Of a stretch of DNA of 57,005 nucleotides, positions 1,466-53,190 are shown piece after piece (position 1 is the first letter of the stretch; every line of letters starts with the position of its first letter). The DNA lies in IMG/VR virus record IMGVR_UViG_3300000095_000003, positions 1 to 57,005 of that record; one strand, given 5' to 3'. The notes under the pieces are model-generated. The model searched no databases and was not told the origin of the DNA. It saw nothing but the letters and a program-made list of their open reading frames with translations. Position numbers and translations under genes: made by a program. The DNA comes from a virus. Taxonomy: Duplodnaviria; Caudoviricetes.

Positions 1466-2620
1466 CTATTTCTTCTCGTCGTAACGGTCATTCATTATTT
1501 TTGTACTCAATTTGTTATTATTTTTAGTTCTTATTACAATACCTTCTATCACCCAGTTCTCAGTTTGTTTATAATTCTCAAATATCTCATTAGCTTTTGA
1601 GATTAATTCATCATAATTAGAAGCACTAATAGGTAGAGGAACTAGATAATCAATTCCTACATCTTTACAAATACTAACTACTTCATCTGGCAACAATCTA
1701 ACTGCTCCACCAGTATCTAAATCATCAATACCAAATATCTTAATAGACGGCTTCATACTAGCGTGAGGATTTAATTTGTTACCTGAGCCTTTAGTAACTT
1801 CTAATCCATACATCTCACCTCTAAACGCTAATTGTCTATTATTTTCTTGACAATACTTCATTCCACGTTCATATAAACCAGTTGAACGAGATAATCTAAC
1901 CCATCTATCATCGTTGTTTGGGTCATCTATGTCTTTCTTCTCTAAAAGCCTACTGCAAATACCTGTAATTAATTCACCTTCACTCTTCCTAAAATATTGA
2001 GTAAAAGACGATCCATCTATCTTTAAGGTATAAACTAACTCTTCTCCAGCTTCCAATAAACGATTGATGTAAGATTTTATGTTAGCTGCATTTTCCTCAT
2101 TTGTTTTATATAGGAAACCAGGAAGATTACCTTTAACTCTCCCATTACCAAATCGTTCAGGTTCTTCATATTTCGTAATACCTAAGAATTCAGCTAAGTC
2201 TATAATACTGTCATAGTATACAACTTCATTCCTAGAGACTTCTTCAAAAGGCAGCAAAATTCCATTTGAATAGATAACGTCACAACTATCTTCTTTAGTA
2301 AAGTTAAATTTAATCGCTTTAATTCTGTTATTCTTCCCTAACTTAGATTTCTTAGGATCACCATTTGGAGCAATGAAACTAGAGAATAGTTCAGTATCAG
2401 GTACACAATAATCAGGTTGAACGTAGGCCGCTCTCTCCCCTATCTGGTATAAATCTTTCTGAGATACAATATTAAATCCACATTCATTGGTATAATCACT
2501 CTCTTCGGGATTAAAGAAAGAGAAGTTAATAAGCTCAATGTTAGTAGCGGGTTCTCCTGTACCTTTTTTGAATAAAGGACTTTTTGTAGTGATTTTAACG
2601 ATTTCTACTGGGTTAGTCAT
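1466..2620 (-). CDS. ATP-dependent RNA ligase, DRB0094/Rnl5-like (N-terminal OB domain + nucleotidyltransferase)
   Basis: motif I KIDGSS, FRGEMYG, IFGID, EGIVIR, C-terminal KIMN; N-terminal region with SNGILLP. Confidence 0.85.
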   Translation of the reverse strand: MTNPVEIVKITTKSPLFKKGTGEPATNIELINFSFFNPEESDYTNECGFNIVSQKDLYQIGERAAYVQPDYCVPDTELFSSFIAPNGDPKKSKLGKNNRIKAIKFNFTKEDSCDVIYSNGILLPFEEVSRNEVVYYDSIIDLAEFLGITKYEEPERFGNGRVKGNLPGFLYKTNEENAANIKSYINRLLEAGEELVYTLKIDGSSFTQYFRKSEGELITGICSRLLEKKDIDDPNNDDRWVRLSRSTGLYERGMKYCQENNRQLAFRGEMYGLEVTKGSGNKLNPHASMKPSIKIFGIDDLDTGGAVRLLPDEVVSICKDVGIDYLVPLPISASNYDELISKANEIFENYKQTENWVIEGIVIRTKNNNKLSTKIMNDRYDEKK

Positions 2621-5865: not shown

Positions 5866-5875
5866 TTAAATCTTC

Positions 5876-5913
5876 AAATAGAAACACTCCACCAATAAAG
5901 ATAGAGTGCTTCC
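5876..5913 (-). terminator. intrinsic terminator-like hairpin
   Basis: GAAGCACTCTATC-loop-GGTGGAGTGTTTC followed by TATTT on minus strand. Confidence 0.5.
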
Positions 5914-5919
5914 AACTAA

Positions 5920-12229: not shown

Positions 12230-13591
12230 TCAAATATTACTAATTGCTACTCCACCTGACTGTCTTGCTATTTTTAATAAATGGTCATTAGTTCCACCTA
12301 CAATAATAGTGTTCAATCTAATACAACCTAAATGTTCGAGTTTTAATGAAGTAGTATTGTCACATCCATCAGTAACTACTAACAACTCTGGTTTAGTTAG
12401 ATTAAGATTATTCTCTAACTTCTTATTGATTCGCTTAATAGCTTCTTTTGTACAATGGGCTATTGCAGTGCTTCCCTCATCAAAGTTTTCATATTTAATT
12501 TTACTCATTAGATTCCTTACTTCGGATAAAGAATCGGAAGATGCAGTATATTCCTTACCTAACTCATCATGAAAGAAAGAAAAACTTACTTCTGCTTCTC
12601 CTTCTAAGACTGCTTTGAGTCTATTCATTAACACTCCACCAGCTTTGAGGAAGTTATTACCAGAGTGCATTGAACTTGAACAATCAATTAAAAGATAAAG
12701 TAACATTCTCTTCTCTTGTTTAGAACATCTTTCTCTAATAGTTGATGTTCCAGATATAATTCTGTAATTGAGATAGTTTCGATTATATATAAGCTCTTCA
12801 GGATTTAATCTATCTATCTCACTAAAATCATTAATCGGACGATATCTAACTTCACTTCCATTTGGGTCAGGAGTTAATCTTACCTGTTTTCCAGTCCTTA
12901 ACTTAACTAATTTATCTAGATTTCTCTTAATTTGCAACATTACTTCTTTACCATTAAGCATATCTTCTGCCATTGATAGCTGGCTCTTATCACCTAGAGG
13001 CCCAGTAAACTCTAATAATTGCTTTTCGTGATAATCTAAGTTTGATATAGCTTCAAATGTCTTATTGAGTCTATCCGCTAATTTCTCCTGATTTTGATTG
13101 AAGATTGGTAGAATTTCCTCATCATCACCTTGTCTATTACTTGACTCTCCTCCTTCTTGAGTAGATAAGATTTTTACTAAAGATAGCGACTTTTCTAACG
13201 GAGAAACACCTGGAACATTACTAATATCAAGACTACGAACAAAGTTCTGTATATTTCGATGATAGTTAACTTCTTTAATAGCTGCTAACTCTCTAGCTTT
13301 AAATTTATCTTTTACATAATTATCATTAGAATCTCTTAGATACTCTCTTCCTTTATATATATATCTTCCATTACTATGAGTAGTTAAACACTTATCTAGG
13401 TAATTGCCTCTCCTCAAATTATCTACTATCTGATGTTCCGGAATAAATGAACCACCAGCTTGTATATTACATAAGTCCTCTACTAAATCTTTCGAGAAGG
13501 CTTTCAAACCTATTCTCTCAGCCATTTCTTGAATATCCCTTTGACTAGGAGGAAGATAATTGCTTGGAGGATTTGTTCTAGGTGTAGTCAT
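12230..13591 (-). CDS. VWA domain protein (ViaA/CoxE-like)
   Basis: MIDAS motif LLIDCSSSM, GSTAI, LLVVTDG; adjacent to MoxR ATPase. Confidence 0.85.
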   Translation of the reverse strand: MTTPRTNPPSNYLPPSQRDIQEMAERIGLKAFSKDLVEDLCNIQAGGSFIPEHQIVDNLRRGNYLDKCLTTHSNGRYIYKGREYLRDSNDNYVKDKFKARELAAIKEVNYHRNIQNFVRSLDISNVPGVSPLEKSLSLVKILSTQEGGESSNRQGDDEEILPIFNQNQEKLADRLNKTFEAISNLDYHEKQLLEFTGPLGDKSQLSMAEDMLNGKEVMLQIKRNLDKLVKLRTGKQVRLTPDPNGSEVRYRPINDFSEIDRLNPEELIYNRNYLNYRIISGTSTIRERCSKQEKRMLLYLLIDCSSSMHSGNNFLKAGGVLMNRLKAVLEGEAEVSFSFFHDELGKEYTASSDSLSEVRNLMSKIKYENFDEGSTAIAHCTKEAIKRINKKLENNLNLTKPELLVVTDGCDNTTSLKLEHLGCIRLNTIIVGGTNDHLLKIARQSGGVAISNI

Positions 13592-13661
13592 TTCTCTATT
13601 TTCCTTAATATTAATTGAGTCTTAGCTCTGATAATTAGTAGTTACCAGAGCCGATTCTTAG

Positions 13662-14801
13662 CTATTTCACATATCCTTTTGCAGATTTCAAAGCTTTATC
13701 AGAAAGCTCGATAACCTCATTTTGAAGATTATTTCTTTGTTCTGTTAATTGGTCAGGAACTCTAATATTAGAAACTTTCTCATTAATGTTGTCTAACTTT
13801 GCGGATAGATTTAATAGCATTGTACCTTTCTGAGAAGAAGGAATCTTTGAATTCCCATTATAATCAGTCATCTTTTGGGAAATTTCGTTCACTTCTTTTC
13901 TTGCTTTGTCTAACTGCGCGGTGGCTTCTCTAATGACTGTTACTCTCTCCAACTTAGCAGCTAAATCATCAAGAATACCATCAGTTCCAGAAATAAACTT
14001 AATAGCCCATAAATCGTCCTCATTAGCTTCTTTTCTTTCTTGAATAGTCGCTGAAGCTCTTAAAGAACTAAGACATACCATAGCTTGCCGTGGGCTAATC
14101 CATTGTCCCTTGCTATGAGCATCAGCAATCAGTCCAGCTAATACTTTTTTCAAATCATTAGAAATCGATATAGTTGAAGAGTTGTTATCCGCAGTTAAAA
14201 ATAAGTTATAGAAAGCCTCTTGATTATAAGAAGGCCATGCTACATTAATCTGCCAAGGAAATCTTTCAACTAAGGCTTGATAAGATGCTCCCATGTCTGC
14301 AATTTCCGCTGGATTACGGTTTGTTGCAGCTATTAACATTAAAGTCTTCATCTCATAAGATTGATGTCCATTATTTAAGCAACGAGATGTCAGAGTGTCT
14401 TTAAGAGCTAGTAGAACTGAGGGTGGAGCATCAAAAAGTTCCTCAAAAAGATAATTAGCGCAGTTTAAAAAGCAATTATCGGGTTGAAATTCTAACCGTG
14501 GATTTTCAGTACAGTTAAGAGCTTTCATGTTTATCCCGCCATACATCTTAGCTTCCGTCATACCTTCTCCGAAACTCTGGATACCAAAGTTCTGACCCTT
14601 AGATTGTTGTAGTGCCTTAAAGAGCGCTCTTACTATTTCACTTTTTCCGTGACCACCAGGGCCGTAAAATAAAAGATTAATAGGTTTTCCTGCTTCAATA
14701 GATGCTAAAGCTAGAGATAAAATTTCCTTTACTTCATCGGCATAAACAAAAGTCTTCAAAGCATCTGCAACTACTGGAAGGATACGATTAGAGTTAGTCA
14801 T
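13662..14801 (-). CDS. MoxR/RavA-type AAA+ ATPase
   Basis: NLLFYGPGGHGKS, LFEEL, IAATN, ALVERF, ISPRQ. Confidence 0.85.
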   Translation of the reverse strand: MTNSNRILPVVADALKTFVYADEVKEILSLALASIEAGKPINLLFYGPGGHGKSEIVRALFKALQQSKGQNFGIQSFGEGMTEAKMYGGINMKALNCTENPRLEFQPDNCFLNCANYLFEELFDAPPSVLLALKDTLTSRCLNNGHQSYEMKTLMLIAATNRNPAEIADMGASYQALVERFPWQINVAWPSYNQEAFYNLFLTADNNSSTISISNDLKKVLAGLIADAHSKGQWISPRQAMVCLSSLRASATIQERKEANEDDLWAIKFISGTDGILDDLAAKLERVTVIREATAQLDKARKEVNEISQKMTDYNGNSKIPSSQKGTMLLNLSAKLDNINEKVSNIRVPDQLTEQRNNLQNEVIELSDKALKSAKGYVK

Positions 14802-22439: not shown

Positions 22440-22534
22440 GGTAATTCTCCAAAAAACTAAATTTACTCAAAAAACACACACAAAAAGCTAAAATCTTGTG
22501 CTTAACCTTGATTTTTTAGTCAAAATTTAGACAC

Positions 22535-22571
22535 AAAAAGCGCCCCTATCCCGGTTAAAGGATAAGAGCGC
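22535..22571 (-). terminator. intrinsic terminator
   Basis: GCGCTCTTATCC/GGATAGGGGCGC stem followed by TTTTT. Confidence 0.8.
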
Positions 22572-22614
22572 GACCGACTAGGAGGAAAAACAAGAGAAAT
22601 TGAGAACTAATTGT

Positions 22615-27718: not shown

Positions 27719-27751
27719 TTGATTTCTCTGTGATTTAGTTAGTGGATAAGC

Positions 27752-27815
27752 GATACTCAATTTTATGGATGTCGAGTATCAAAGCCCTTACATAGCAACC
27801 AACTACATAAGAGCG
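27752..27815 (-). ncRNA. two-hairpin kissing-loop motif, copy B
   Basis: GCUCUUAUGUAG-UUGGUUG-CUAUGUAAGGGC-UUU-GAUACUCGA C AUCCAUAAA A UUGAGUAUC. Confidence 0.75.
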
Positions 27816-27826
27816 AGTAGATTAGT

Positions 27827-28075: not shown

Positions 28076-28101
28076 GATTCTCTCTCCTTTGTGTGTACAT
28101 C

Positions 28102-28163
28102 TACCCAATTTTATCGGTATAGGGTATAAAGACCTCTGTACAGCAACGAACTATACAGAAGTG
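28102..28163 (-). ncRNA. two-hairpin kissing-loop motif, copy C (covariant loops)
   Basis: ACUUCUGUAUAG-UUCGUUG-CUGUACAGAGGU, hairpin 2 UACCC..ACCGAUAAA..GGGUA. Confidence 0.75.
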
Positions 28164-28169
28164 ATGAGA

Positions 28170-28397: not shown

Positions 28398-28424
28398 GAG
28401 TTTTTCCTCTTGTGTACGTTAACA

Positions 28425-28487
28425 GATACCTAGCTTTAGGATGTAAGGTATCAATACCTCTAGAAGATAACCACAAATCTAGAGGTG
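28425..28487 (-). ncRNA. two-hairpin kissing-loop motif, copy D
   Basis: ACCUCUAGAUUU-GUGGUUA-UCUUCUAGAGGU, hairpin 2 GAUACCU..AUCCUAAA..AGGUAUC. Confidence 0.7.
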
Positions 28488-28498
28488 GAAAAAGTGTA

Positions 28499-28801: not shown

Positions 28802-29089
28802 TTAATGAGTAAGTTTTGAAAGACTCTGATAAATCCCCAGAGACCATAATCTGTTGAATCTTTCTGAGATTTTCTTAGCTTGTGCTTCATCATCCGCTAG
28901 GTATCTCATCTTCTCACCATTACCTGCCGGAGCAAAATACCAACTCCTACTATCCTCTGTCATCTCACCACCTTGACAATTAGTGATTATACTCGCTACA
29001 TAATGACTAGGGCAATGTCTTTGATAATGCTGTTCATTCCAATATACATCCTTTACAATGACTGCAAATTCAGAACTTTGACTGCTCAT
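28802..29089 (-). CDS. hypothetical protein
   Basis: AAGGAG RBS. Confidence 0.6.
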   Translation of the reverse strand: MSSQSSEFAVIVKDVYWNEQHYQRHCPSHYVASIITNCQGGEMTEDSRSWYFAPAGNGEKMRYLADDEAQAKKISERFNRLWSLGIYQSLSKLTH

Positions 29090-29110
29090 TTTTAACTCCT
29101 TTTAATGTAC

Positions 29111-29189
29111 ACTACTTTACAACTACTCTTTAGGATAAGTAGCCTAAGTAGTAAAACCCTCTACCAGCTAACCAAACTAATAGAGGGTG
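29111..29189 (-). ncRNA. two-hairpin kissing-loop motif, copy E
   Basis: ACCCUCUAUUAGU-UUGGUUA-GCUGGUAGAGGGU, hairpin 2 GGCUACUU-AUCCUAAA-GAGUAGUU. Confidence 0.75.
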
Positions 29190-29213
29190 AAAATATGAGA
29201 GAGTAAGTAAAAG

Positions 29214-29414
29214 CTACTCTAGCATCATATTAATGATTCGGGATTTTAACTTAGCTAACTCTTCAAAGTAATTAGCATTATTAATCTTGTCACGTAGCTT
29301 GTCTAAATCTTCCTCAGTAACTTCTTTGCGCGGACTTAATGGATATTGCGGTGAAGGTATCGGTTGTTTAGTAGTCCAAGGTGTGGGTTTTCCGGGGTCA
29401 TTAATTTCTGCCAT
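29214..29414 (-). CDS. small hypothetical protein
   Basis: AGGAG RBS. Confidence 0.55.
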   Translation of the reverse strand: MAEINDPGKPTPWTTKQPIPSPQYPLSPRKEVTEEDLDKLRDKINNANYFEELAKLKSRIINMMLE

Positions 29415-29473
29415 TGTTCTTGCTCCTAGTTTGTGTTGTTAGATGCTTTTAGTAACTCCGGGCTGAGAATTGA

Positions 29474-30103
29474 TTAACCGCAGTAATTACTATTTTCTGG
29501 GCAATTTACCCAAGCCCAACCACTACCACAAGTACATAAGCGGTTATTAGGATTAGTTGTGAAGCTGTCATCGCTAACCCCTTGACTTGAGATTGTACGA
29601 TATAGACTTTCCTCATCATCGCCTTTCAGAACCTCACCGAATAGCACCAACTCCCCCAACTCTTCATCAAGACAGACAAAAACATTCGCCTCACTAGAAT
29701 TAAGAATTAAGCGAGCTTTAGACAGTAAATGATCTAGCTGTCTCAATTCATCTTGAGTGAGAGTAGATGGTTGTACGTTGACTTTAATCTCAGTATCCTT
29801 TGCTGCTTTCTGAAGCTTGACTACTAAATGCTCGGCTTCATCAAAGGTGAGAAAAGCATCAACAAAGTTTTTAAGTGCGTTGGAAATCAAGAAATACTCT
29901 GGATTTTTACCAGTAACCCTTGAAATTCCGTAAATGCTAAAGCCACCATTTAAGCCCCCAGTTTCTTCTAAGATATACATTGATTGATAAGGCGAGGGAA
30001 CTTGTCGCACCTTACTAATCACTAAGTCTTTCTCTCTCACAATAAAATCCGGATTTCCAATCATCTCTCTAGCAGCTTGGTCAAAATCAAAAGGTTGATA
30101 CAT
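29474..30103 (-). CDS. hypothetical protein with C-terminal SEC-C-like Cys motif
   Basis: LCTCGSGWAWVNC...YCG. Confidence 0.55.
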   Translation of the reverse strand: MYQPFDFDQAAREMIGNPDFIVREKDLVISKVRQVPSPYQSMYILEETGGLNGGFSIYGISRVTGKNPEYFLISNALKNFVDAFLTFDEAEHLVVKLQKAAKDTEIKVNVQPSTLTQDELRQLDHLLSKARLILNSSEANVFVCLDEELGELVLFGEVLKGDDEESLYRTISSQGVSDDSFTTNPNNRLCTCGSGWAWVNCPENSNYCG

Positions 30104-30155
30104 GGAAACCTCTAAAAATCTAAGTGTGTGAATTACCTGATAAGAACTACCAGGA

Positions 30156-30226
30156 ATACTTAAACTGGGAATCGAACCCAGTAGAGTAGTTATTAGTTAC
30201 TCTTTCCACCGTTGGATTTTAAGTAT
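30156..30226 (-). ncRNA. miniature tRNA-like element T1
   Basis: AUACUUAAA A UCC AACGGU GGA A AGAGUA(9 nt)UACUCU A CUGGG UUCGAUU CCCAG UUUAAGUAU. Confidence 0.8.
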
Positions 30227-30563
30227 ACAAAGGCTTTTTGATGATTAACTCGGCTAACTCTATTGCTTGATATTCGTTATCTGCAAAACCTCTATAGTTA
30301 TTATGCTCATCTAACACTAGATATTTAAGGTTAGTGTTAGTAACAATAGATTTGTGAACTGTAGCGATTTTGTACTTGGCAGTCTTATCGTCGGTGTGAT
30401 ATATAGTAGATGAGAGAATGTACAAAGATTTGAGGTATTCGGGATAACGACCCTTAACTACATTGATAACCTTGGGTAGTTTAGAGAATAGTAGATCTTT
30501 AATTGCTTGGGCTGTCTCTCTACCAATAAGGGTATAGCCATCATCAGTTATAATCTCAATCAT
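30219..30563 (-). CDS. hypothetical protein
   Basis: AGAGG RBS; stop codon overlaps T1. Confidence 0.6.
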   Translation of the reverse strand: MIEIITDDGYTLIGRETAQAIKDLLFSKLPKVINVVKGRYPEYLKSLYILSSTIYHTDDKTAKYKIATVHKSIVTNTNLKYLVLDEHNNYRGFADNEYQAIELAELIIKKPLYT

Positions 30564-30600
30564 TTTGACCTCTTATTACCTGGGATAAATTACCAGGAAG

Positions 30601-30664
30601 CGCCTAATCTAGAATCGAACTAGATAACTAACTTAGAGCTAGTCGCCACCATTGACTTTAGACG
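30601..30664 (-). ncRNA. miniature tRNA-like element T2
   Basis: CGUCUAA A GUC AAUGGU GGC GACUAGC(5 nt)GUUAGUU A UCUAG UUCGAUU CUAGA UUAGGCG. Confidence 0.8.
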
Positions 30665-30693
30665 GGTTTAGTAGAGACAATAGGATTCCTGTA

Positions 30694-31113
30694 CTAAGCA
30701 AAAATTATTCGATCTTTGACATTTGAGTTGTACTGGGAGTTGAATAGCTGTATAAGTTGATTAATTTCGTAGTGCTTAAAGTCAGTTGAATTAGTAGATA
30801 GGTAATACCCTTTACCTGCTATAGTGTAATTTTCTGTTAACCATTGTTCAAACTCATTTGATTTTTGTTTTCTTTCCAACCAATCCTTAATAGCTACCCA
30901 ATCTACTCTTTCTTCTAGGGCAATGTTAATTAGAGCTAATGCGGCATCTGCTATAGATTGAGGTCTGAGTGTATTAATCATATAGTCAGAAAACAAATCT
31001 TTTAACTCTTTTTCATTGAGAGAGTAATAGCAATGTAGACTATCTTTCTCATCGTTTAACCAACATATAACTAATGCGGTTTCTTTGCTTGTGGTTTGTG
31101 TTTGAGTAGACAT
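30694..31113 (-). CDS. hypothetical protein
   Basis: co-oriented ORF between T2 and T3. Confidence 0.6.
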   Translation of the reverse strand: MSTQTQTTSKETALVICWLNDEKDSLHCYYSLNEKELKDLFSDYMINTLRPQSIADAALALINIALEERVDWVAIKDWLERKQKSNEFEQWLTENYTIAGKGYYLSTNSTDFKHYEINQLIQLFNSQYNSNVKDRIIFA

Positions 31114-31160
31114 TTGACAAAGAACTTAGAGTGAATTAGTACACTGTTCTCTAAGTAAAA

Positions 31161-31226
31161 GCTCAGTTACGAATTGAACGTAATGATAAACCTTTGATTG
31201 ATTTATCCCCACCATTGAGTCTGAGC
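31161..31226 (-). ncRNA. miniature tRNA-like element T3
   Basis: GCUCAG A CUC AAUGGU GGG GAUAAAUC(7 nt)GGUUUAUC A UUACG UUCAAUU CGUAA CUGAGC. Confidence 0.8.
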
Positions 31227-31235
31227 AACCTTTAA

Positions 31236-31469
31236 CTATTTCTCAACTAAAACATACCGATACTGAGTTTTAGATATTTCTTCGGGAATGTAGCTATACC
31301 CAAGTGCCTCTGCTCTAGTTAAGAGTCTATTACGATAATCAAGTAATTCACCTAGTCTCAGTCTCGCATCTGCTTTCTGTTGACATTCTGGTTTACCGAA
31401 CCATTGCGTGAGTATTTCTGATTCTTTCTCACTAATGCTATTTAGCTCTAGTTGTATCTGCTGTTTCAT
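31236..31469 (-). CDS. hypothetical protein (start moved to MKQQ)
   Basis: AAGGAGAG RBS before ATG 31469. Confidence 0.6.
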   Translation of the reverse strand: MKQQIQLELNSISEKESEILTQWFGKPECQQKADARLRLGELLDYRNRLLTRAEALGYSYIPEEISKTQYRYVLVEK

Positions 31470-31512
31470 TGTTCTCTCCTTTGATAACGTCACTCTGTAT
31501 TGAGTAACAAAA

Positions 31513-31558
31513 CTTAGATGGGGAGTTGAACCCCACAACTAATGAAATCGTGCTTAAG
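31513..31558 (-). ncRNA. degenerate T-arm junction element (J3)
   Basis: perfect T-arm UGGGG UUCAACU CCCCA; flanking stems weak. Confidence 0.45.
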
Positions 31559-31757
31559 AATTTAACTTGTCCATAAACTCTTGTATTTCTTGCTGCTCTA
31601 GCTCCTGTAAAAACAATTCCCCATCATGCACAAGGTTTTTGAGATTAGTATCAGTGAGAGCTTTAAGCTTTGCCATTAACTTTTTAACGTCTGGATACTC
31701 ACTCTGTAATGTTTCATAGCCCGGTGTAACTTCAGCTATTGCATCATCTAAACTCAT
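31554..31757 (-). CDS. first small ORF of the leftward unit, hypothetical
   Basis: GAAGGAGAG RBS. Confidence 0.6.
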   Translation of the reverse strand: MSLDDAIAEVTPGYETLQSEYPDVKKLMAKLKALTDTNLKNLVHDGELFLQELEQQEIQEFMDKLNS

Positions 31758-31804
31758 ATTCTCTCCTTCGTGTTTGTGTGTTACTTCCCATTAGTAGGAA
31801 GAAA

Positions 31805-32049
31805 ACCGATTTAAGGAATTGCACCTTACACTCTCAAAATAGTTTAGTAGACTTTCCTTTGCACTCTACTATCTAACTATTACCATACTGTCACTAGGTA
31901 ATATAAGTTAAAATCCCCTAAACTTTTTAGATTGGCTAGTTAGTATCGTGCGAATAGAATCGATATACCATCCTCTATGGCTTAACCGTTCGCTACATAA
32001 TCCCTAGTTACTACGGGGTAACTTTTTTGACAAGTGGACTATCATCGGT
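31805..32049 (-). ncRNA. ~245 nt structured RNA closed by a stem and T-loop arm
   Basis: ACCGAU/AUCGGU closing stem, CACUUGUCAAAA/UUUUGAGAGUG helix, AAGUUA/UAACUU, several inner hairpins, UAAGG UGCAAUU CCUUA arm. Confidence 0.6.
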
Positions 32050-32053
32050 ACGC

Positions 32054-32072
32054 TATTTAATTATCAAGGTTC
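32054..32072 (-). promoter_or_regulatory. rRNA-operon-type boxA antitermination element
   Basis: GAACCTTGATAATTAAATA; one mismatch to cyanobacterial ITS boxA GAACCTTGAAAA; preceded by hairpin CTTG-ATAATTATGA-CAAG. Confidence 0.65.
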
Positions 32073-32225
32073 TGAGCTTGTCATAATTATCAAGAATCCT
32101 TCGTTAACTGAATGCTTTGCCAGTAACTACAGATGCTAGTCAAAAAATGTTAAGCGAGATATTTAATTTGCTTGACCTTAGCTATTGATGTGACTATCTT
32201 TGTTAGATTGACGCGGTAACAGCTA

Positions 32226-32318
32226 TGGAGGTAATCAACTTACTCTCAGACTTTTCTCAAGCAACATAGGATTAACCTATCTGATTTCAGAAGCACTTAA
32301 ATTTGGAGGTAATCAACT
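32226..32318 (-). repeat. 15-nt perfect direct repeat AGTTGATTACCTCCA (x2)
   Basis: plus strand TGGAGGTAATCAACT at 32226-32240 and 32304-32318. Confidence 0.85.
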
Positions 32319-32550
32319 CATTATGAGCCAACTTTAGAAGTAGTAGAGGAAATGCTACATAGGCAAGAACTCCTAGATTAATCCCTTATCAGTATAGGTA
32401 AGGAGACTAGCTCGATATCCTATATTTGAAAGGGTAGATCGGGAAAACGACTGGCGTTAGTCCGTCTCTGGGTTTAATTTCTCGCTCACTGGGAGGGAGT
32501 AGTGAAGATTGGATTAGCTTTAAGTAGCTTTCTCTTCCCTTCATGTATCT

Positions 32551-32556
32551 ATTATA
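32551..32556 (-). promoter_or_regulatory. candidate -10 element (TATAAT) for the leftward unit
   Basis: TATAATAGATACATGAAGGG on minus strand; no canonical -35 at 17 bp. Confidence 0.45.
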
Positions 32557-32805
32557 GAACTACCTGATTGCAAGTAGGTGATTTGAGATTGATATTGAAG
32601 AAGAGTGTTGGAGGCTGGGATGTATAGGAGGAAAGGGATTGGGGAGATTAGGTGATAGAAGAAAGGAGATTGAGAGAGGTGGTTACTACTCTCTAGCCCC
32701 TATACCAAATACTTTATACAAGAAACTAAGTGATCTAAATTTTAAGTACCTATGAAAAATGAACTACTATATATCTATACCGACATATAAAAGATATATA
32801 AGAAA

Positions 32806-33474
32806 ATGGCATTCGAGAAAAAATGGGATTGGGATACAATCAGATTGGATTACATGATAGGTCAATTTGCATTCAATAAAGAAGGAATACAAATACAACG
32901 ACCATTCACTCTAAAAACACTATCTGAGAAATACAATATACCAGAACCAACATTAGCAGCTAAATGTAAAAAAGAGAAATGGGTAGCACAAAGAGATCTT
33001 CTTGACTCTAAATTAAGAAGAAGACTAGACGAAGGAAAAGTAACGTCTCTACTAGGCGAATCTACAATGTCAGATAGTCTAGCTCTTAGTCAATTATCTA
33101 AAGCTACACAAATGATTACTAATTACTTTAAACAATATAACTTAGATGAAAACTCTGACATCTCATATAATCCAGAAGAAACTCCACCAATAAATCCTAG
33201 AGAACTTAAAGATGTAGTAGGAGTAATAAAAGAAATCCATCTATTAACTAAATCTATAATAGGAACTGATTCACTCCAAGAACATCTAGAAGAAATACAA
33301 GTAAAAGATAAAGCTAAACAATTAAATAAATTAAAAACAGATCCTAAAGCAATGGAAGATAAACTACAACAATTACTAAAACGAAGACAAGAACTATTAT
33401 CTGAATCTTCTAACACTCATTTACTATCTTTACCTGCTCATGAACAAATAGTAGAAGTAGAAGTAGAAAGATAA
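32806..33474 (+). CDS. terminase small subunit-like HTH protein
   Basis: WDWDTIRLDY...TLKTLSEKYNIPEPTL...KKEKW followed by helical region. Confidence 0.55.
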   Translation: MAFEKKWDWDTIRLDYMIGQFAFNKEGIQIQRPFTLKTLSEKYNIPEPTLAAKCKKEKWVAQRDLLDSKLRRRLDEGKVTSLLGESTMSDSLALSQLSKATQMITNYFKQYNLDENSDISYNPEETPPINPRELKDVVGVIKEIHLLTKSIIGTDSLQEHLEEIQVKDKAKQLNKLKTDPKAMEDKLQQLLKRRQELLSESSNTHLLSLPAHEQIVEVEVER

Positions 33475-41925: not shown

Positions 41926-42960
41926 ATGAATGAAGTACAAAGAGCAAAAGAAATAGCTAATCAATATAAGAACGAGTTAGGTTTTGTTAATCGAGCAGCA
42001 TTAGAACTATCTCTAAGTAAGAATGAATTAGAAGCTATAGTAGAAGATAATGAAACAATAGGATTTACCCACTTTCATCATAGAAGAGATAAGCAAACTA
42101 CTATTTACTCTATAGCAGTTAATAAAGAAAGATTAAAAGAAGGTTGGGGTAGACTATTGTTCTATAGAGTTCTTTGTAGTGCTATTGAACATAAGAAAGA
42201 TTATATAATAGCCAAATGTCCAGAAGATTTGTTATCTAATGGATTTTATAAAAAATTAGGGTTCATACTAGACCGAGTAGAAGAAGGAAAGAAAAGAAAA
42301 TTAAATGTTTGGAGATACAACATTGTACTTCCTTTACTATTCTATTGTGCAGATGGAGGACGGAATCAATATGGAAAAATAGCTAAAGAAGAAAATTGGA
42401 GATTAGGTTTACAGTCTGAATCTACATTAATCAATGGAAGAGTAGAATTTGTAGATAATAAATGGAAAGATTATAATCATGAGAAACATTTATTAGCAGT
42501 TAAGAAGTATAAACCATTATTAGCCACCGCAAGAGACATTGAAAGTTTAGATGATTTAGAAGAAATATTATATCAAGCTAAAGAGTTAAGTCATTATTGT
42601 GGAAGATTATTAATAATACCAAAAGTTGAATGTGAAATACCTAATGAATATTGGTTAGCGTTTTCGATACCTACTTCACATGGTGGAACTCTATTAGACC
42701 CAAGTTTCTTTAAAGATAGATTTGTACATTTATTAGGTGGTTCTCCTAAAGCTCAAGCTAAATATTTCTCTAAATTTAATACTGTAAGTCTAGACGGAAA
42801 CTATTGTAATAAAATAAGTAAGTATGGAAAAGTTTGTTATCAAGGTAAAGAAGAGTTAATACAAAATGCGACAGGAGAAAGAGGTTGTTATCCTGCGTTT
42901 AGAGAAAGTTTAAGGAGACAGAAATTATATTGGCATAAATCTAATTGTGCTATATTATAA
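41926..42960 (+). CDS. GNAT acetyltransferase fused to DUF6610/TGT-like barrel domain
   Basis: IYSIAV...LKEGWGRLL...SNGFYKKLGF; then FVDN, ATARD, IIPK, AFSIPTSHGG, VHLLGGSP, VSLDGN. Confidence 0.65.
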   Translation: MNEVQRAKEIANQYKNELGFVNRAALELSLSKNELEAIVEDNETIGFTHFHHRRDKQTTIYSIAVNKERLKEGWGRLLFYRVLCSAIEHKKDYIIAKCPEDLLSNGFYKKLGFILDRVEEGKKRKLNVWRYNIVLPLLFYCADGGRNQYGKIAKEENWRLGLQSESTLINGRVEFVDNKWKDYNHEKHLLAVKKYKPLLATARDIESLDDLEEILYQAKELSHYCGRLLIIPKVECEIPNEYWLAFSIPTSHGGTLLDPSFFKDRFVHLLGGSPKAQAKYFSKFNTVSLDGNYCNKISKYGKVCYQGKEELIQNATGERGCYPAFRESLRRQKLYWHKSNCAIL

Positions 42961-51606: not shown

Positions 51607-53190
51607 ATGTCAAAGAAAAAGAATGAACAGTTAAGCAAAATAGATCAAGAGATAGAGTTTCTACTTAATCAACAGAAATATCTTAATGCTTCTAATTCTC
51701 TATATGATTTCCTTAAAGTTGGGTTTGAACACGTTGAATCTACTCCATTTAGAGATAGTAGATTAGCTCAAGCGTTAAGCGAACATTTAGAAGCTGTAAT
51801 GGCAGGACAGATTAAACGACTCATTATCAATATTAGTCCTCGTACAATGAAAACTCTGTTAACTGGGGTTTATTTTCCTGCTTATTGGTGGTTGAAGAAA
51901 CCTCATCTTAAGTTTATTTATTGTAGTTATAGCTTTGATATTGCTAAGGAATGTTCTGAGCAATTTAGAAAGCTAGTTAATGATGATTATTACTCTCTAG
52001 TTCAAAATACTATGGAAGATCTAGTAGATAATCCTATAGAACTAATAAAAGATACTGAGAAAGTAATTTATAATAATTATCAAGGTAAGAGATATACTAT
52101 TGGGATTGGCGGTTCTATTACTGGTAAAGGAGCTGACGTAATCATTCTAGATGACCCATTAAAAGCTAGTGAGGCAGATTCTAAAAAAGTGGTTCTTAAG
52201 ACTAATAAATTTGTAGGAGGAACACTTATTTCTCGTTTTAATCCTTCTAGTGAAGAGAAAGCACTTATTGTTATTCAGCAACGATTAAGAGAGAATGATA
52301 CTTCTGGTTATTTAATAGAAGAGATAGGCGGATTTGATAGATTAGTTTTACCTTTGCTTTATACTGGTGTTTCTCCTAGTTCTACTAAATTGGGTTTTAA
52401 AGATTGGAGGAAAAAAGTAGGAGAGATATTAGTTCCTGAACTTCTTGATATAGAGACTATTAAGAAGATGGAGATTGAGTTTACTCCTTTCGAGTTTGAA
52501 CGTCAGTGTCAGCAAAATGTGAAGGGTACTGCTGGTAACGTTATCTCTAATAAATACTTCAAAGAATTTCAGAATGCTCCACCTTATGAGCAATATATTC
52601 TCGCTGGTGACTTAGCACAATCAGTAAATGACCAAGCTTGCTATACAGGATTAGTGATTTTTGGTATATATCAAAATAAGTATTATGTAGTAGATGTAGT
52701 AGAAAAGAAATTAGGTTTTGATGATTTAATTATTGAAGTAAAAAACCTACTAAATAAATATCCTTGTGCTTATAAAATTATAGAAAATAAAAGTGTCGGC
52801 CCTGCTTTAGTTTCTGCATTATCTCAGCAAATCCCTGGTTTTATTGCATTAGAACCTAGAGAATATGGGACAGATAAAGAAAGTCGATTAAAAGCTACTA
52901 TTCCTGCATTTATGTCAGGTAAGATATATTTTCCTACTAAAGAAACTTGTGAGAAGATAGTTACTCTAAAAGACCAATTAGTAACTTTTCCATTATGTAG
53001 GAATGATGATGTAATGGATGCTTTCTGCTATGGAGTTTTATGGTTAGAGAGAAATAGTAGAGTAGTAAGTAGCTCAGAAATACTTCAAGTTCCATCTGAA
53101 TATATAAAACAAAGAAGGAACATCTTTATTGATACTCCTTCTCCTAATATATTTGGTTCTACTAATACTTCTACTAGATTTAGATTTTGA
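51607..53190 (+). CDS. terL: terminase large subunit
   Basis: RLIINISPRTMKT, GGSITGKGADVIILDDPLKA, IQQRL, nuclease acidic residues AGDLA, IENKSVG, NDDVMDA. Confidence 0.92.
   Translation: MSKKKNEQLSKIDQEIEFLLNQQKYLNASNSLYDFLKVGFEHVESTPFRDSRLAQALSEHLEAVMAGQIKRLIINISPRTMKTLLTGVYFPAYWWLKKPHLKFIYCSYSFDIAKECSEQFRKLVNDDYYSLVQNTMEDLVDNPIELIKDTEKVIYNNYQGKRYTIGIGGSITGKGADVIILDDPLKASEADSKKVVLKTNKFVGGTLISRFNPSSEEKALIVIQQRLRENDTSGYLIEEIGGFDRLVLPLLYTGVSPSSTKLGFKDWRKKVGEILVPELLDIETIKKMEIEFTPFEFERQCQQNVKGTAGNVISNKYFKEFQNAPPYEQYILAGDLAQSVNDQACYTGLVIFGIYQNKYYVVDVVEKKLGFDDLIIEVKNLLNKYPCAYKIIENKSVGPALVSALSQQIPGFIALEPREYGTDKESRLKATIPAFMSGKIYFPTKETCEKIVTLKDQLVTFPLCRNDDVMDAFCYGVLWLERNSRVVSSSEILQVPSEYIKQRRNIFIDTPSPNIFGSTNTSTRFRF

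Follow-up and report, generated by a model that had tools for sequence, protein, structure and literature searches.

The DNA analysed here is the IMG/VR virus record IMGVR_UViG_3300000095_000003, from a tailed phage (Caudoviricetes). An own-genome search returned the record itself: the window, i.e. the whole stretch that was analysed, is a whole IMG/VR virus record with 57,005 bp and 31.7% G+C. It is densely coding under table 11 (the standard bacterial code) and the minus strand predominates. In consecutive spacers between minus-strand open reading frames (ORFs), the window has three small elements, E1, E2 and E3 (Table 1), that fold into tRNA-like cloverleafs on the strand of the surrounding genes. 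An earlier note on this DNA, made by a model from the letters, had described three cloverleafs with one common grammar at these places, and both the folds and a scan for T arms (see below) confirm this. In each element, the acceptor stem and one A lead to a D stem of 3 bp with the loop AAYGGU, which is followed by a hairpin of 19-23 nt, another single A and a T stem of 5 bp that carries the loop UUCRAUU; as the note had also said, all three are without CCA. The four-way cloverleaf is the minimum-free-energy fold of E1, E2 and E3, with z scores of -2.3, -2.2 and -1.8 against shuffles, respectively.

The acceptor stem of E1 has 7 bp, or 9 bp when positions 30156 and 30225-30226 are added. Its D loop is AACGGU, its central hairpin has 6 bp and a 9-nt loop, its T loop is UUCGAUU and its discriminator is A; the last sense codon and the UAA (30221-30219) of the upstream ORF of 114 amino acids lie inside the 5' strand of the acceptor. 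E2 has a 7-bp acceptor that includes one G-U pair (U3.G70), a GUC/GGC D stem with an AAUGGU loop, a UCUAG/CUAGA T stem with a UUCGAUU loop and C as discriminator. E3 starts 8 nt past the stop of the upstream ORF and has an acceptor of 6 bp plus U.U, a CUC/GGG D stem with an AAUGGU loop, an 8-bp central hairpin with a 7-nt loop and a UUACG/CGUAA T stem with the loop UUCAAUU. The earlier note's statement that there is no canonical anticodon loop is too strict for the window, as E2 and E3 can be drawn with 7-nt loops (CUCUAAG and AAUCAAA, respectively), but it holds once relatives are counted.

Two simple searches single out the same region. The motif AAYGGTGG occurs four times in the window with 0.57 occurrences expected (0/100 shuffles reach four), and three of these occurrences are in the elements. 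When the 57 kb were scanned on both strands for T arms, defined as a stem of at least 4 bp around TTCRAHY, only four sites were found, each of them on the minus strand and together in four consecutive intergenic spaces (30164-31536). The fourth site is possibly a degenerate element: it has a good T arm (31518-31536) with a UUCAACU loop, a weak acceptor with 5/7 pairs and no D arm, and it overlaps the stop codon (31556-31554) of a 67-amino-acid ORF. No further copy was identified when the whole window was scanned with the covariance model and without filters; the next best hit had 15.8 bits (E value 0.5).

Table 1 Cloverleaf elements and their trailer hairpins in the window (R1 and R2 are the models described in the next section)
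Feature	Position	Strand	Basis
E1 tRNA-like cloverleaf	30157..30224	-	fold; R1 79.9 bits, R2 65.3 bits
E2 tRNA-like cloverleaf	30600..30664	-	fold; R1 75.4 bits
E3 tRNA-like cloverleaf	31159..31227	-	fold; R1 78.9 bits
Possible degenerate fourth element	31511..31553	-	good T arm, 10.5 bits on T arm only
E1 trailer hairpin, 7 bp, from 2 nt past the discriminator	30136..30154	-	-7.2 kcal/mol, z -2.8
E2 trailer hairpin CCUGG...CCAGG, from 2 nt past E2	30579..30597	-	fold of trailer
E3 trailer hairpin ACUUAGAG...CUCUAAGU, 8 bp, past a UUUU linker	31124..31156	-	sequence
Fourth-site trailer hairpin GUUACUC...GAGUGAC	31489..31508	-	sequence

Relatives, covariation and the central arm

A model built from E1-E3 only (R1) matched all five related records that were searched (about 80-151 kb), with best E values per record between 3.6e-12 and 2.1e-5. 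Whole-record scans with the model after one round of refinement (R2) found one to three elements per record, all within about 2 kb of the same early region, and a further contig has four elements. In total, there are 17 elements of 48-72 nt in seven records, plus the degenerate fourth site of the window.

For 16 copies from the seven records, the acceptor, D and T stems were aligned: 96.8% of the cells are paired and both sides change in 15 of the 16 pairs. Neither the observed pairing nor the covariation score was reached by any of 500 shuffles, and control alignments with the partner slid by 1-3 columns had 29-45% pairing. Pairing is complete (100%) in the T stem and 93.8% in the acceptor. 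RNAalifold, run on a separate MAFFT alignment of 13 of the 16 copies, recovered the stems of acceptor and T arm, where compensation is seen in 9 of 12 pairs; this alignment omits the three copies that have no D stem, and the D stem is lost in it through the gap placement of MAFFT. G.U pairs occur in all three stems; read from the opposite strand they would become A.C, and it is therefore the coding-strand RNA on which selection acts.

Conservation among the 16 aligned copies is highest in the D-loop GG and the T loop, and G53:C61 is invariant (16/16). The pair at the elbow, G19:C56, is kept in 13 of 14 copies: it is G:C in twelve, C:G in one and unpaired in one. The C:G pair is found in the E2-type copy of one relative (G005), with AAUGCU as D loop and UUGGAUU as T loop, and Watson-Crick pairing is retained; this swap is a single event, at two otherwise almost invariant positions. 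The covariation suggests a tertiary contact between D loop and T loop. With the double change at G19:C56 and the conservation of D-loop GG and T loop, the idea of the earlier note that the elements are mimics of the elbow and acceptor of a tRNA has stood up well. To judge from the aligned copies, the conserved unit is the top half of a tRNA together with the elbow.

The central region varies among orthologues from a 23-nt hairpin down to a linker of 4-8 nt. E2-type elements are 65, 65, 58, 58 and 52 nt long, the shortest with a linker of only 7 nt; in the E2 orthologues of G001, G003, G004 and G005 the T stem covaries, and their central arms include such of 12, 12 or 7 nt. E3-type elements are 69, 68, 52, 52, 52, 50 and 48 nt long, and most have a plain UAUCUUAU-like linker without hairpin (the E3 orthologues, 48-68 nt, are in G001, G002, G003, G005 and L148). 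These comparisons show the central arm to be dispensable and outside what is conserved. The copies between 72 and 48 nt can be regarded as a natural deletion series, which marks the minimal unit of acceptor, T arm and D loop that is kept, including the swap of G19:C56 to C:G.

Among the elements of the 'ACYUCUA' type, the copy at G001:32821-32906 (plus strand; the same as L138 5822-5907) has a 28-nt insertion in the T loop, which is itself capable of forming a hairpin, and the copies of G005 and L148 are without D stem but keep AAAAUUGG. Decay or a different fold may account for these copies.

The genes around the elements are less constant: 3/5 window ORFs that flank elements have no homologue in the 14-kb loci of the five relatives (BLASTP, E value 1e-5 or better). 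The order of the element types varies between genomes, and in G003 the E1 trailer and the orthologous downstream gene sit after a different type of cloverleaf. Judged from these arrangements, the modules behave as shuffled cassette boundaries; the covariation of the stems shows that they are kept as RNA structures and not only as patches of DNA homology.

Pattern scans found few candidates elsewhere. The E2-type pattern matched nine stretches, four in known relatives and five chance matches in one unrelated coding sequence, and the type-B pattern matched known relatives only. The combination of D arm and T loop was found in at least 116 stretches of viral contigs, with a T stem of at least 3 bp in 16 of 115 examined; among the 116 stretches listed, none passes the full cloverleaf filter and most that have a T stem look like ordinary tRNAs. 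Two tRNA-like oddities stand apart: two unrelated viral contigs, one of them G+C-rich, have intergenic cloverleafs (L037 10523-10587 and L108 about 1450-1513, both on the plus strand) with an AAUGGU D loop, a UUCGAUU T loop, a short stem-loop for the anticodon arm and a U-run after the acceptor; ARAGORN is silent on both.

Spacer architecture and comparison with tRNAs

All elements are intergenic and belong to a module of two structures: the stop codon is followed by a few nucleotides, the tRNA mimic, a discriminator-like base, U or UU, a hairpin, a ribosome-binding site and AUG. Where it was measured, the element starts at most 12 nt past the upstream stop codon in 11/14 cases (the exceptions being 21, 29 and 64 nt), and the next start codon is mostly 34-62 nt downstream of the element. 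All 17 elements lack CCA and have a trailer that begins with U: only UU follows the discriminator of E1 and E2, and type-B copies have UUUU directly after the acceptor. A hairpin is present within 6 nt of the element end in 16/17 cases when windows of 45 nt are folded (the exception is G001:6950-7007), and within 4 nt in 14/17 cases with 32-nt windows, with a mean z score of -2.5 against mononucleotide shuffles.

In the window, the trailer hairpin of E1 is followed by a GAGG ribosome-binding site and the ATG (30103) of a 209-amino-acid ORF, that of E2 by a ribosome-binding site and the ATG (30563) of the 114-amino-acid ORF, that of E3 by the ATG (31113) of a 139-amino-acid ORF, and that of the fourth site by AAGGAG and an ATG near 31472. 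The trailer hairpins belong to a few types that covary among relatives. The arms of the E2 trailer are swapped in G005 (CCAGG...CCUGG) with pairing retained, and in G001, G005 and L148 the E3 orthologues are trailed by a hairpin of ACUUAG with CUAAGU or CUAGGU. In the same three records the 'ACYUCUA'-type elements are followed by GUUACUC...GGGUAAC, which the hairpin of the fourth site resembles.

The four next spacers of the operon (29090-29213, 28398-28498, 28076-28169 and 27719-27826, minus strand) contain two hairpins each: a strong one of 13-14 bp comes first, a short linker rich in U separates it from the second, and the ribosome-binding site and start codon follow (z scores of -2.8 to -3.4). 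A two-structure intercistronic module looks general to this operon, and the tRNA mimic replaces the first structure, the one on the side of the upstream cistron. That the mimic occupies the slot of a plain 3' hairpin points to a cis role at mRNA borders. A simple scan of 29000-33000 found no excess of promoter-like sites and a single terminator-like site, which is the T arm of the fourth site; E1-E3 were not flagged as intrinsic terminators. The result is compatible with co-transcription of the operon, short of proof.

The elements resemble canonical tRNAs in the 7-bp acceptor, the 5-bp T stem, the UUCRAUU loop, G53:C61, the D-loop GG and G19:C56. They differ from them in having 0-1 nt at positions 8-9, a 3-bp D stem with a loop of 4-6 nt and a variable region of 0-1 nt, and a conserved 5-bp anticodon stem with a 7-nt loop is absent among the orthologues. 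ARAGORN found no tRNA or tmRNA gene in the window and none in the loci of the five relatives. Searches with Rfam 15 gave no match in the window at gathering score, and in 29000-33000 no tRNA match even at E values up to 10. When RF00005 was searched directly, E1 had 21.3 bits (the cut-off is 29 bits) and E2 and E3 were not listed. The earlier note had expected ARAGORN to fail or to call pseudogenes; this is true for the default mode, which calls nothing, but with lowered thresholds or in mitochondrial mode ARAGORN reports E1 as Ile(aat) and E2 as (cta).

The phage group has tRNAs of its own: in the relatives G001-G004 (L159-L163), ARAGORN identifies six ordinary tRNAs, one to three each (Met, Pro, Lys, Gly, Arg), at a distance of 60-75 kb from the elements. 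All six are CCA-less and followed by U, as the elements are. No CCA-adding enzyme is encoded in the phage group and any maturation would therefore use host enzymes.

Other classes of tRNA-like RNA were considered too. ARAGORN reports no tmRNA, and the elements, at 48-72 nt, have neither a tag reading frame nor pseudoknots. For Y RNAs (YrlA), the Ro60/TROVE family PF05731 is absent from five records (G000-G004), Rfam gives no match and the central arm is unconserved. The elements do share with the t-elements of plant mitochondria a non-canonical cloverleaf with a conserved T arm. E1 also has the motif GGTTCRANYCC that was used in PMC1920247 to find t-elements; E2 and E3 keep the loop of this motif, not the flanking GG/CC.

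A proposed processing punctuation and its alternatives

From the anatomy of the elements, we see an even chance that they act like these t-elements, as punctuation that is cut by the host enzymes RNase P and RNase Z. What was observed is structure, conservation, covariation, position and a sequence context in common with the true tRNAs of the phages, from which we infer co-transcription, cleavage, the enzymes and an effect on mRNA stability as follows. The polycistronic early operon would be transcribed as one RNA with mimics in its spacers. With the acceptor stacked on the T arm and the GG of the miniature D arm docked on the T loop, the host enzymes that process tRNA ends would take the mimic for a pre-tRNA. 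The cut after the discriminator would be that of RNase Z or another 3' endonuclease, a second one at the 5' end of the mimic may be contributed by RNase P, and the transcript would thereby be divided into units. The downstream mRNA would begin 2 nt before a protective 5' hairpin; a hairpin near the 5' end is stabilising, given the 5'-end-dependent decay of mRNA in bacteria. The compact mimic would form the end of the upstream mRNA, or would be lost from it if RNase P also cuts.

Several observations weigh against this scheme. A cut by RNase P at the 5' end of E1 would remove the stop codon of the upstream ORF, and elsewhere it would leave most upstream mRNAs with an unprotected 3' tail of 6-12 nt. 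Two-sided excision of the mimic therefore looks costly, and we give cleavage on the 3' side only no smaller a chance than full excision. With only 1-4 copies per genome of about 150 kb, the elements are no general punctuation of the genome. The elbow is not always kept, since the D stem is absent in three 'ACYUCUA'-type copies and in L148:7524; the T-loop insertion of G001:32821-32906 counts here as well. Pair 1:72 is unpaired in 7/16 copies. The alignment behind the covariation had been fitted to the structure of the model itself. Lastly, there is no close isolated phage, the nearest terminase of one being less than 30% identical to that of the window, and the host RNases named above are thus presumed.

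The same anatomy would also suit a role in trans, in which the excised mimics of 48-70 nt, possibly CCA-tailed, are the product and serve as sponges or decoys that engage host factors binding to the acceptor, the T arm or the elbow; this is compatible with punctuation, but we regard it as unlikely. Candidate targets are defence toxins that modify tRNAs or target the acceptor end, RNase P, the CCA-adding enzyme and, if the RNA is charged, EF-Tu. What is conserved are the tRNA surfaces that such factors read, and the sequence types persist while the flanking genes turn over (the three of five flanking window ORFs without homologue). The location in an early operon suits counter-defence and the window encodes an RNA ligase (1466-2620); moreover, stable released t-element RNAs with C or CA tails are known from plant mitochondria (PMC1920247). 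However, the fixed register with stop codon, hairpin and ribosome-binding site and the interchangeability with the plain hairpins of neighbouring spacers point to cis, the acceptor sequences differ by type without a single identity set, and the phages have no CCA-adding enzyme or Ro60 partner. Anticodon nucleases usually attack the anticodon arm, which is unconserved here; as it is dispensable, the decoys for toxins proposed in the earlier note lose weight as far as these nucleases are concerned, leaving factors that read the acceptor or the elbow as possible targets. Both roles could be joined: anticodon-less top halves would be swappable cassette boundaries of a hypervariable early operon, cut by RNase P and RNase Z, and would then accumulate CCA-tailed as trans sponges. 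This is improbable too; if true, one module would provide both mRNA punctuation and counter-defence RNA. Conversely, the mimic may stay uncleaved and act in cis as a structural cap or regulator that blocks 3' exonucleases, pauses or terminates RNA polymerase or couples translation, any cut being made by RNase E/Y in the U-rich linker. Such a cap, which we hold to be quite unlikely, would agree with the plain strong hairpin in the same slot of the four following spacers, with its similar U-rich linker and second hairpin, with the UUUU directly after the acceptor of type-B copies and with the similar cloverleafs followed by U-runs in the two unrelated viral contigs. It would also agree with the stop codon in or beside the acceptor stem, because of which a terminating ribosome must unfold the mimic. 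Yet a plain hairpin would suffice for a cap: the T-loop sequence, the D-loop GG and the covariation of G19:C56 are left unexplained, as are the stack of 7 bp acceptor and 5 bp T stem and the tRNA-like 3' context without CCA and with a following U, and E1-E3 are not terminator-like.

Explanations without a function of the folded RNA, or with a function in decoding, fare worse. The elements could be decaying tRNA pseudogenes, or DNA recombination linkers that provide homology patches for cassette shuffling. The gene content between elements does vary strongly, elements and trailers recombine (the E1 trailer and gene in G003) and some copies are degenerate (the fourth window site and the T-loop insertion of G001). 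Compensatory changes in 15/16 pairs, strand-specific G.U pairs and the two-sided change at the elbow indicate, though, that there is selection on the folded RNA, and losing the anticodon arm while the exact T loop is retained is unlike neutral decay; we consider this explanation very improbable. Aberrant but functional decoding tRNAs, for example suppressors with the anticodons CUA (E2) and UCA (E3), were suggested by the mitochondrial-mode calls of ARAGORN for E1, as Ile(aat), and E2, as (cta), and by the UCA centred in the 7-nt loop of E3. This candidate is refuted for practical purposes by the 48-52 nt orthologues that have no anticodon arm, and it was ruled out together with the lack of any sign of stop-codon recoding: ORF lengths grow only modestly with TAG or TGA as sense codon and coding is dense under table 11. 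Neither does it fit with the absence of a variable region, the one nucleotide at positions 8-9 and scores below tRNA thresholds. Since the orthologues show the central arm to be outside the conserved design, the CUA and UCA triplets are coincidental.

Punctuation by tRNA-like structures would have precedents, as tRNA-like processing signals in long transcripts are already known from organelles, archaea and mammalian nuclei. In MALAT1 (mascRNA) and MEN-beta, a tRNA-like fold in a long transcript is the site of cleavage by RNase P and RNase Z, and the small RNA is released and CCA-tailed; these systems are eukaryotic and nuclear, with one structure per transcript at the 3' end, and a small anticodon stem is kept. 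Among phages, C4 of P1/P7, CI of P4, M3 of phi80 and the stable RNAs C and D of T4 are transcripts matured by host RNase P via tRNA-like features. Each of them is a regulatory or stable RNA by itself and no repeated module between cistrons, and we know of none among them that has a full elbow mimic and no anticodon arm.

The t-elements of wheat, Arabidopsis and Brassica mitochondria and the tRNA-like elements of Haloferax are likewise non-canonical cloverleafs with a well-kept T arm in longer transcripts. In plant mitochondria, t-elements are cut by RNase P and RNase Z at mRNA ends, some inside reading frames, and small RNAs with C or CA tails are released (PMC1920247). The phage elements differ in that they are in the genome of a tailed phage, in tandem in consecutive spacers and coupled to hairpins, with an anticodon arm that is variable or even absent. 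The two show no sequence homology, and the cutting that is established for t-elements (PMC1920247) is a proposal for the phage elements. The tRNA-like domain of tmRNA and YrlA share with the phage elements the acceptor and T arm, the reduced D features and the absence of an anticodon. RNase P RNA cleaves the YrlA of Mycobacterium smegmatis, whose acceptor has 7 bp, and this RNA also receives a CCA tail (PMC4201824). In comparison with YrlA, the phage elements have no Ro-binding helix and are not accompanied by a Ro60/TROVE gene in the five records.

A full-text literature search, covering few subscription journals, returned no report of tandem, anticodon-less and hairpin-coupled elbow mimics in phage operons. 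Should host tRNA enzymes indeed cut the elements, phages would have their own version of the t-elements and tRNA punctuation of organelles: with borrowed RNase P and RNase Z, a virus would define the termini of individual early mRNAs and probably also how stable each of them is. The elements escape the standard tRNA finders and annotation pipelines, and with look-alikes met by chance in two unrelated contigs, the class may be under-counted; if punctuation combined with trans sponges were true, these two cloverleafs would mean that the device is widespread and unannotated. Compact, self-excising spacers of such kind are used in synthetic biology for the release of guide RNAs and for the insulation of cistrons.

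The phage group and other features of the window

At 51607-53190, the window encodes a large terminase, which shares 71-83% identity with its counterparts on six IMG/VR contigs (36.5-151 kb). Direct terminal repeats are present in two of the six, at 146.5 and 151.2 kb, and the genome size of the window phage is therefore about 150 kb. A 6-kb piece of the DNA has no match in isolated phages, the neighbouring 209-amino-acid protein has no relative in viral contigs and ten neighbouring proteins belong to no PHROGs family; many ORFs of the window are without any family match. When an alignment of a protein of about 1100 amino acids was searched in metagenome contigs, a single contig of 1.6 kb was found.

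The RNA ligase gene (1466-2620, minus strand; Pfam RNA_ligase 2.5e-10, PHROG 968 2.9e-30) is 28 kb from the tRNA mimics and may serve tRNA repair; no link to the elements was found. Adjoining genes at 12230-14801 (minus strand) encode a MoxR-like AAA+ ATPase (bpMoxR/AAA_5) and a protein with weak, sub-threshold matches to the von Willebrand factor A (VWA) domain. At 41926-42960 (plus strand), a GNAT acetyltransferase domain is fused to DUF6610 (E value for DUF6610 6e-34).

Two further structures are on the minus strand. At 22470-22614, a G+C-rich stem of 13 bp followed by UUUUUGUGU is likely a strong intrinsic terminator (z score -5.0), and at 5866-5919 there is a very stable hairpin of 15 bp (z score -6.8). 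Upstream of the operon, about 1 kb (31757-32806, minus strand) is without ORFs, and the relatives have a long non-coding stretch at the same place. Within this stretch, GUUGAUUACCUCC is present twice (32305-32317 and 32227-32239) and resembles the anti-Shine-Dalgarno end of 16S rRNA.

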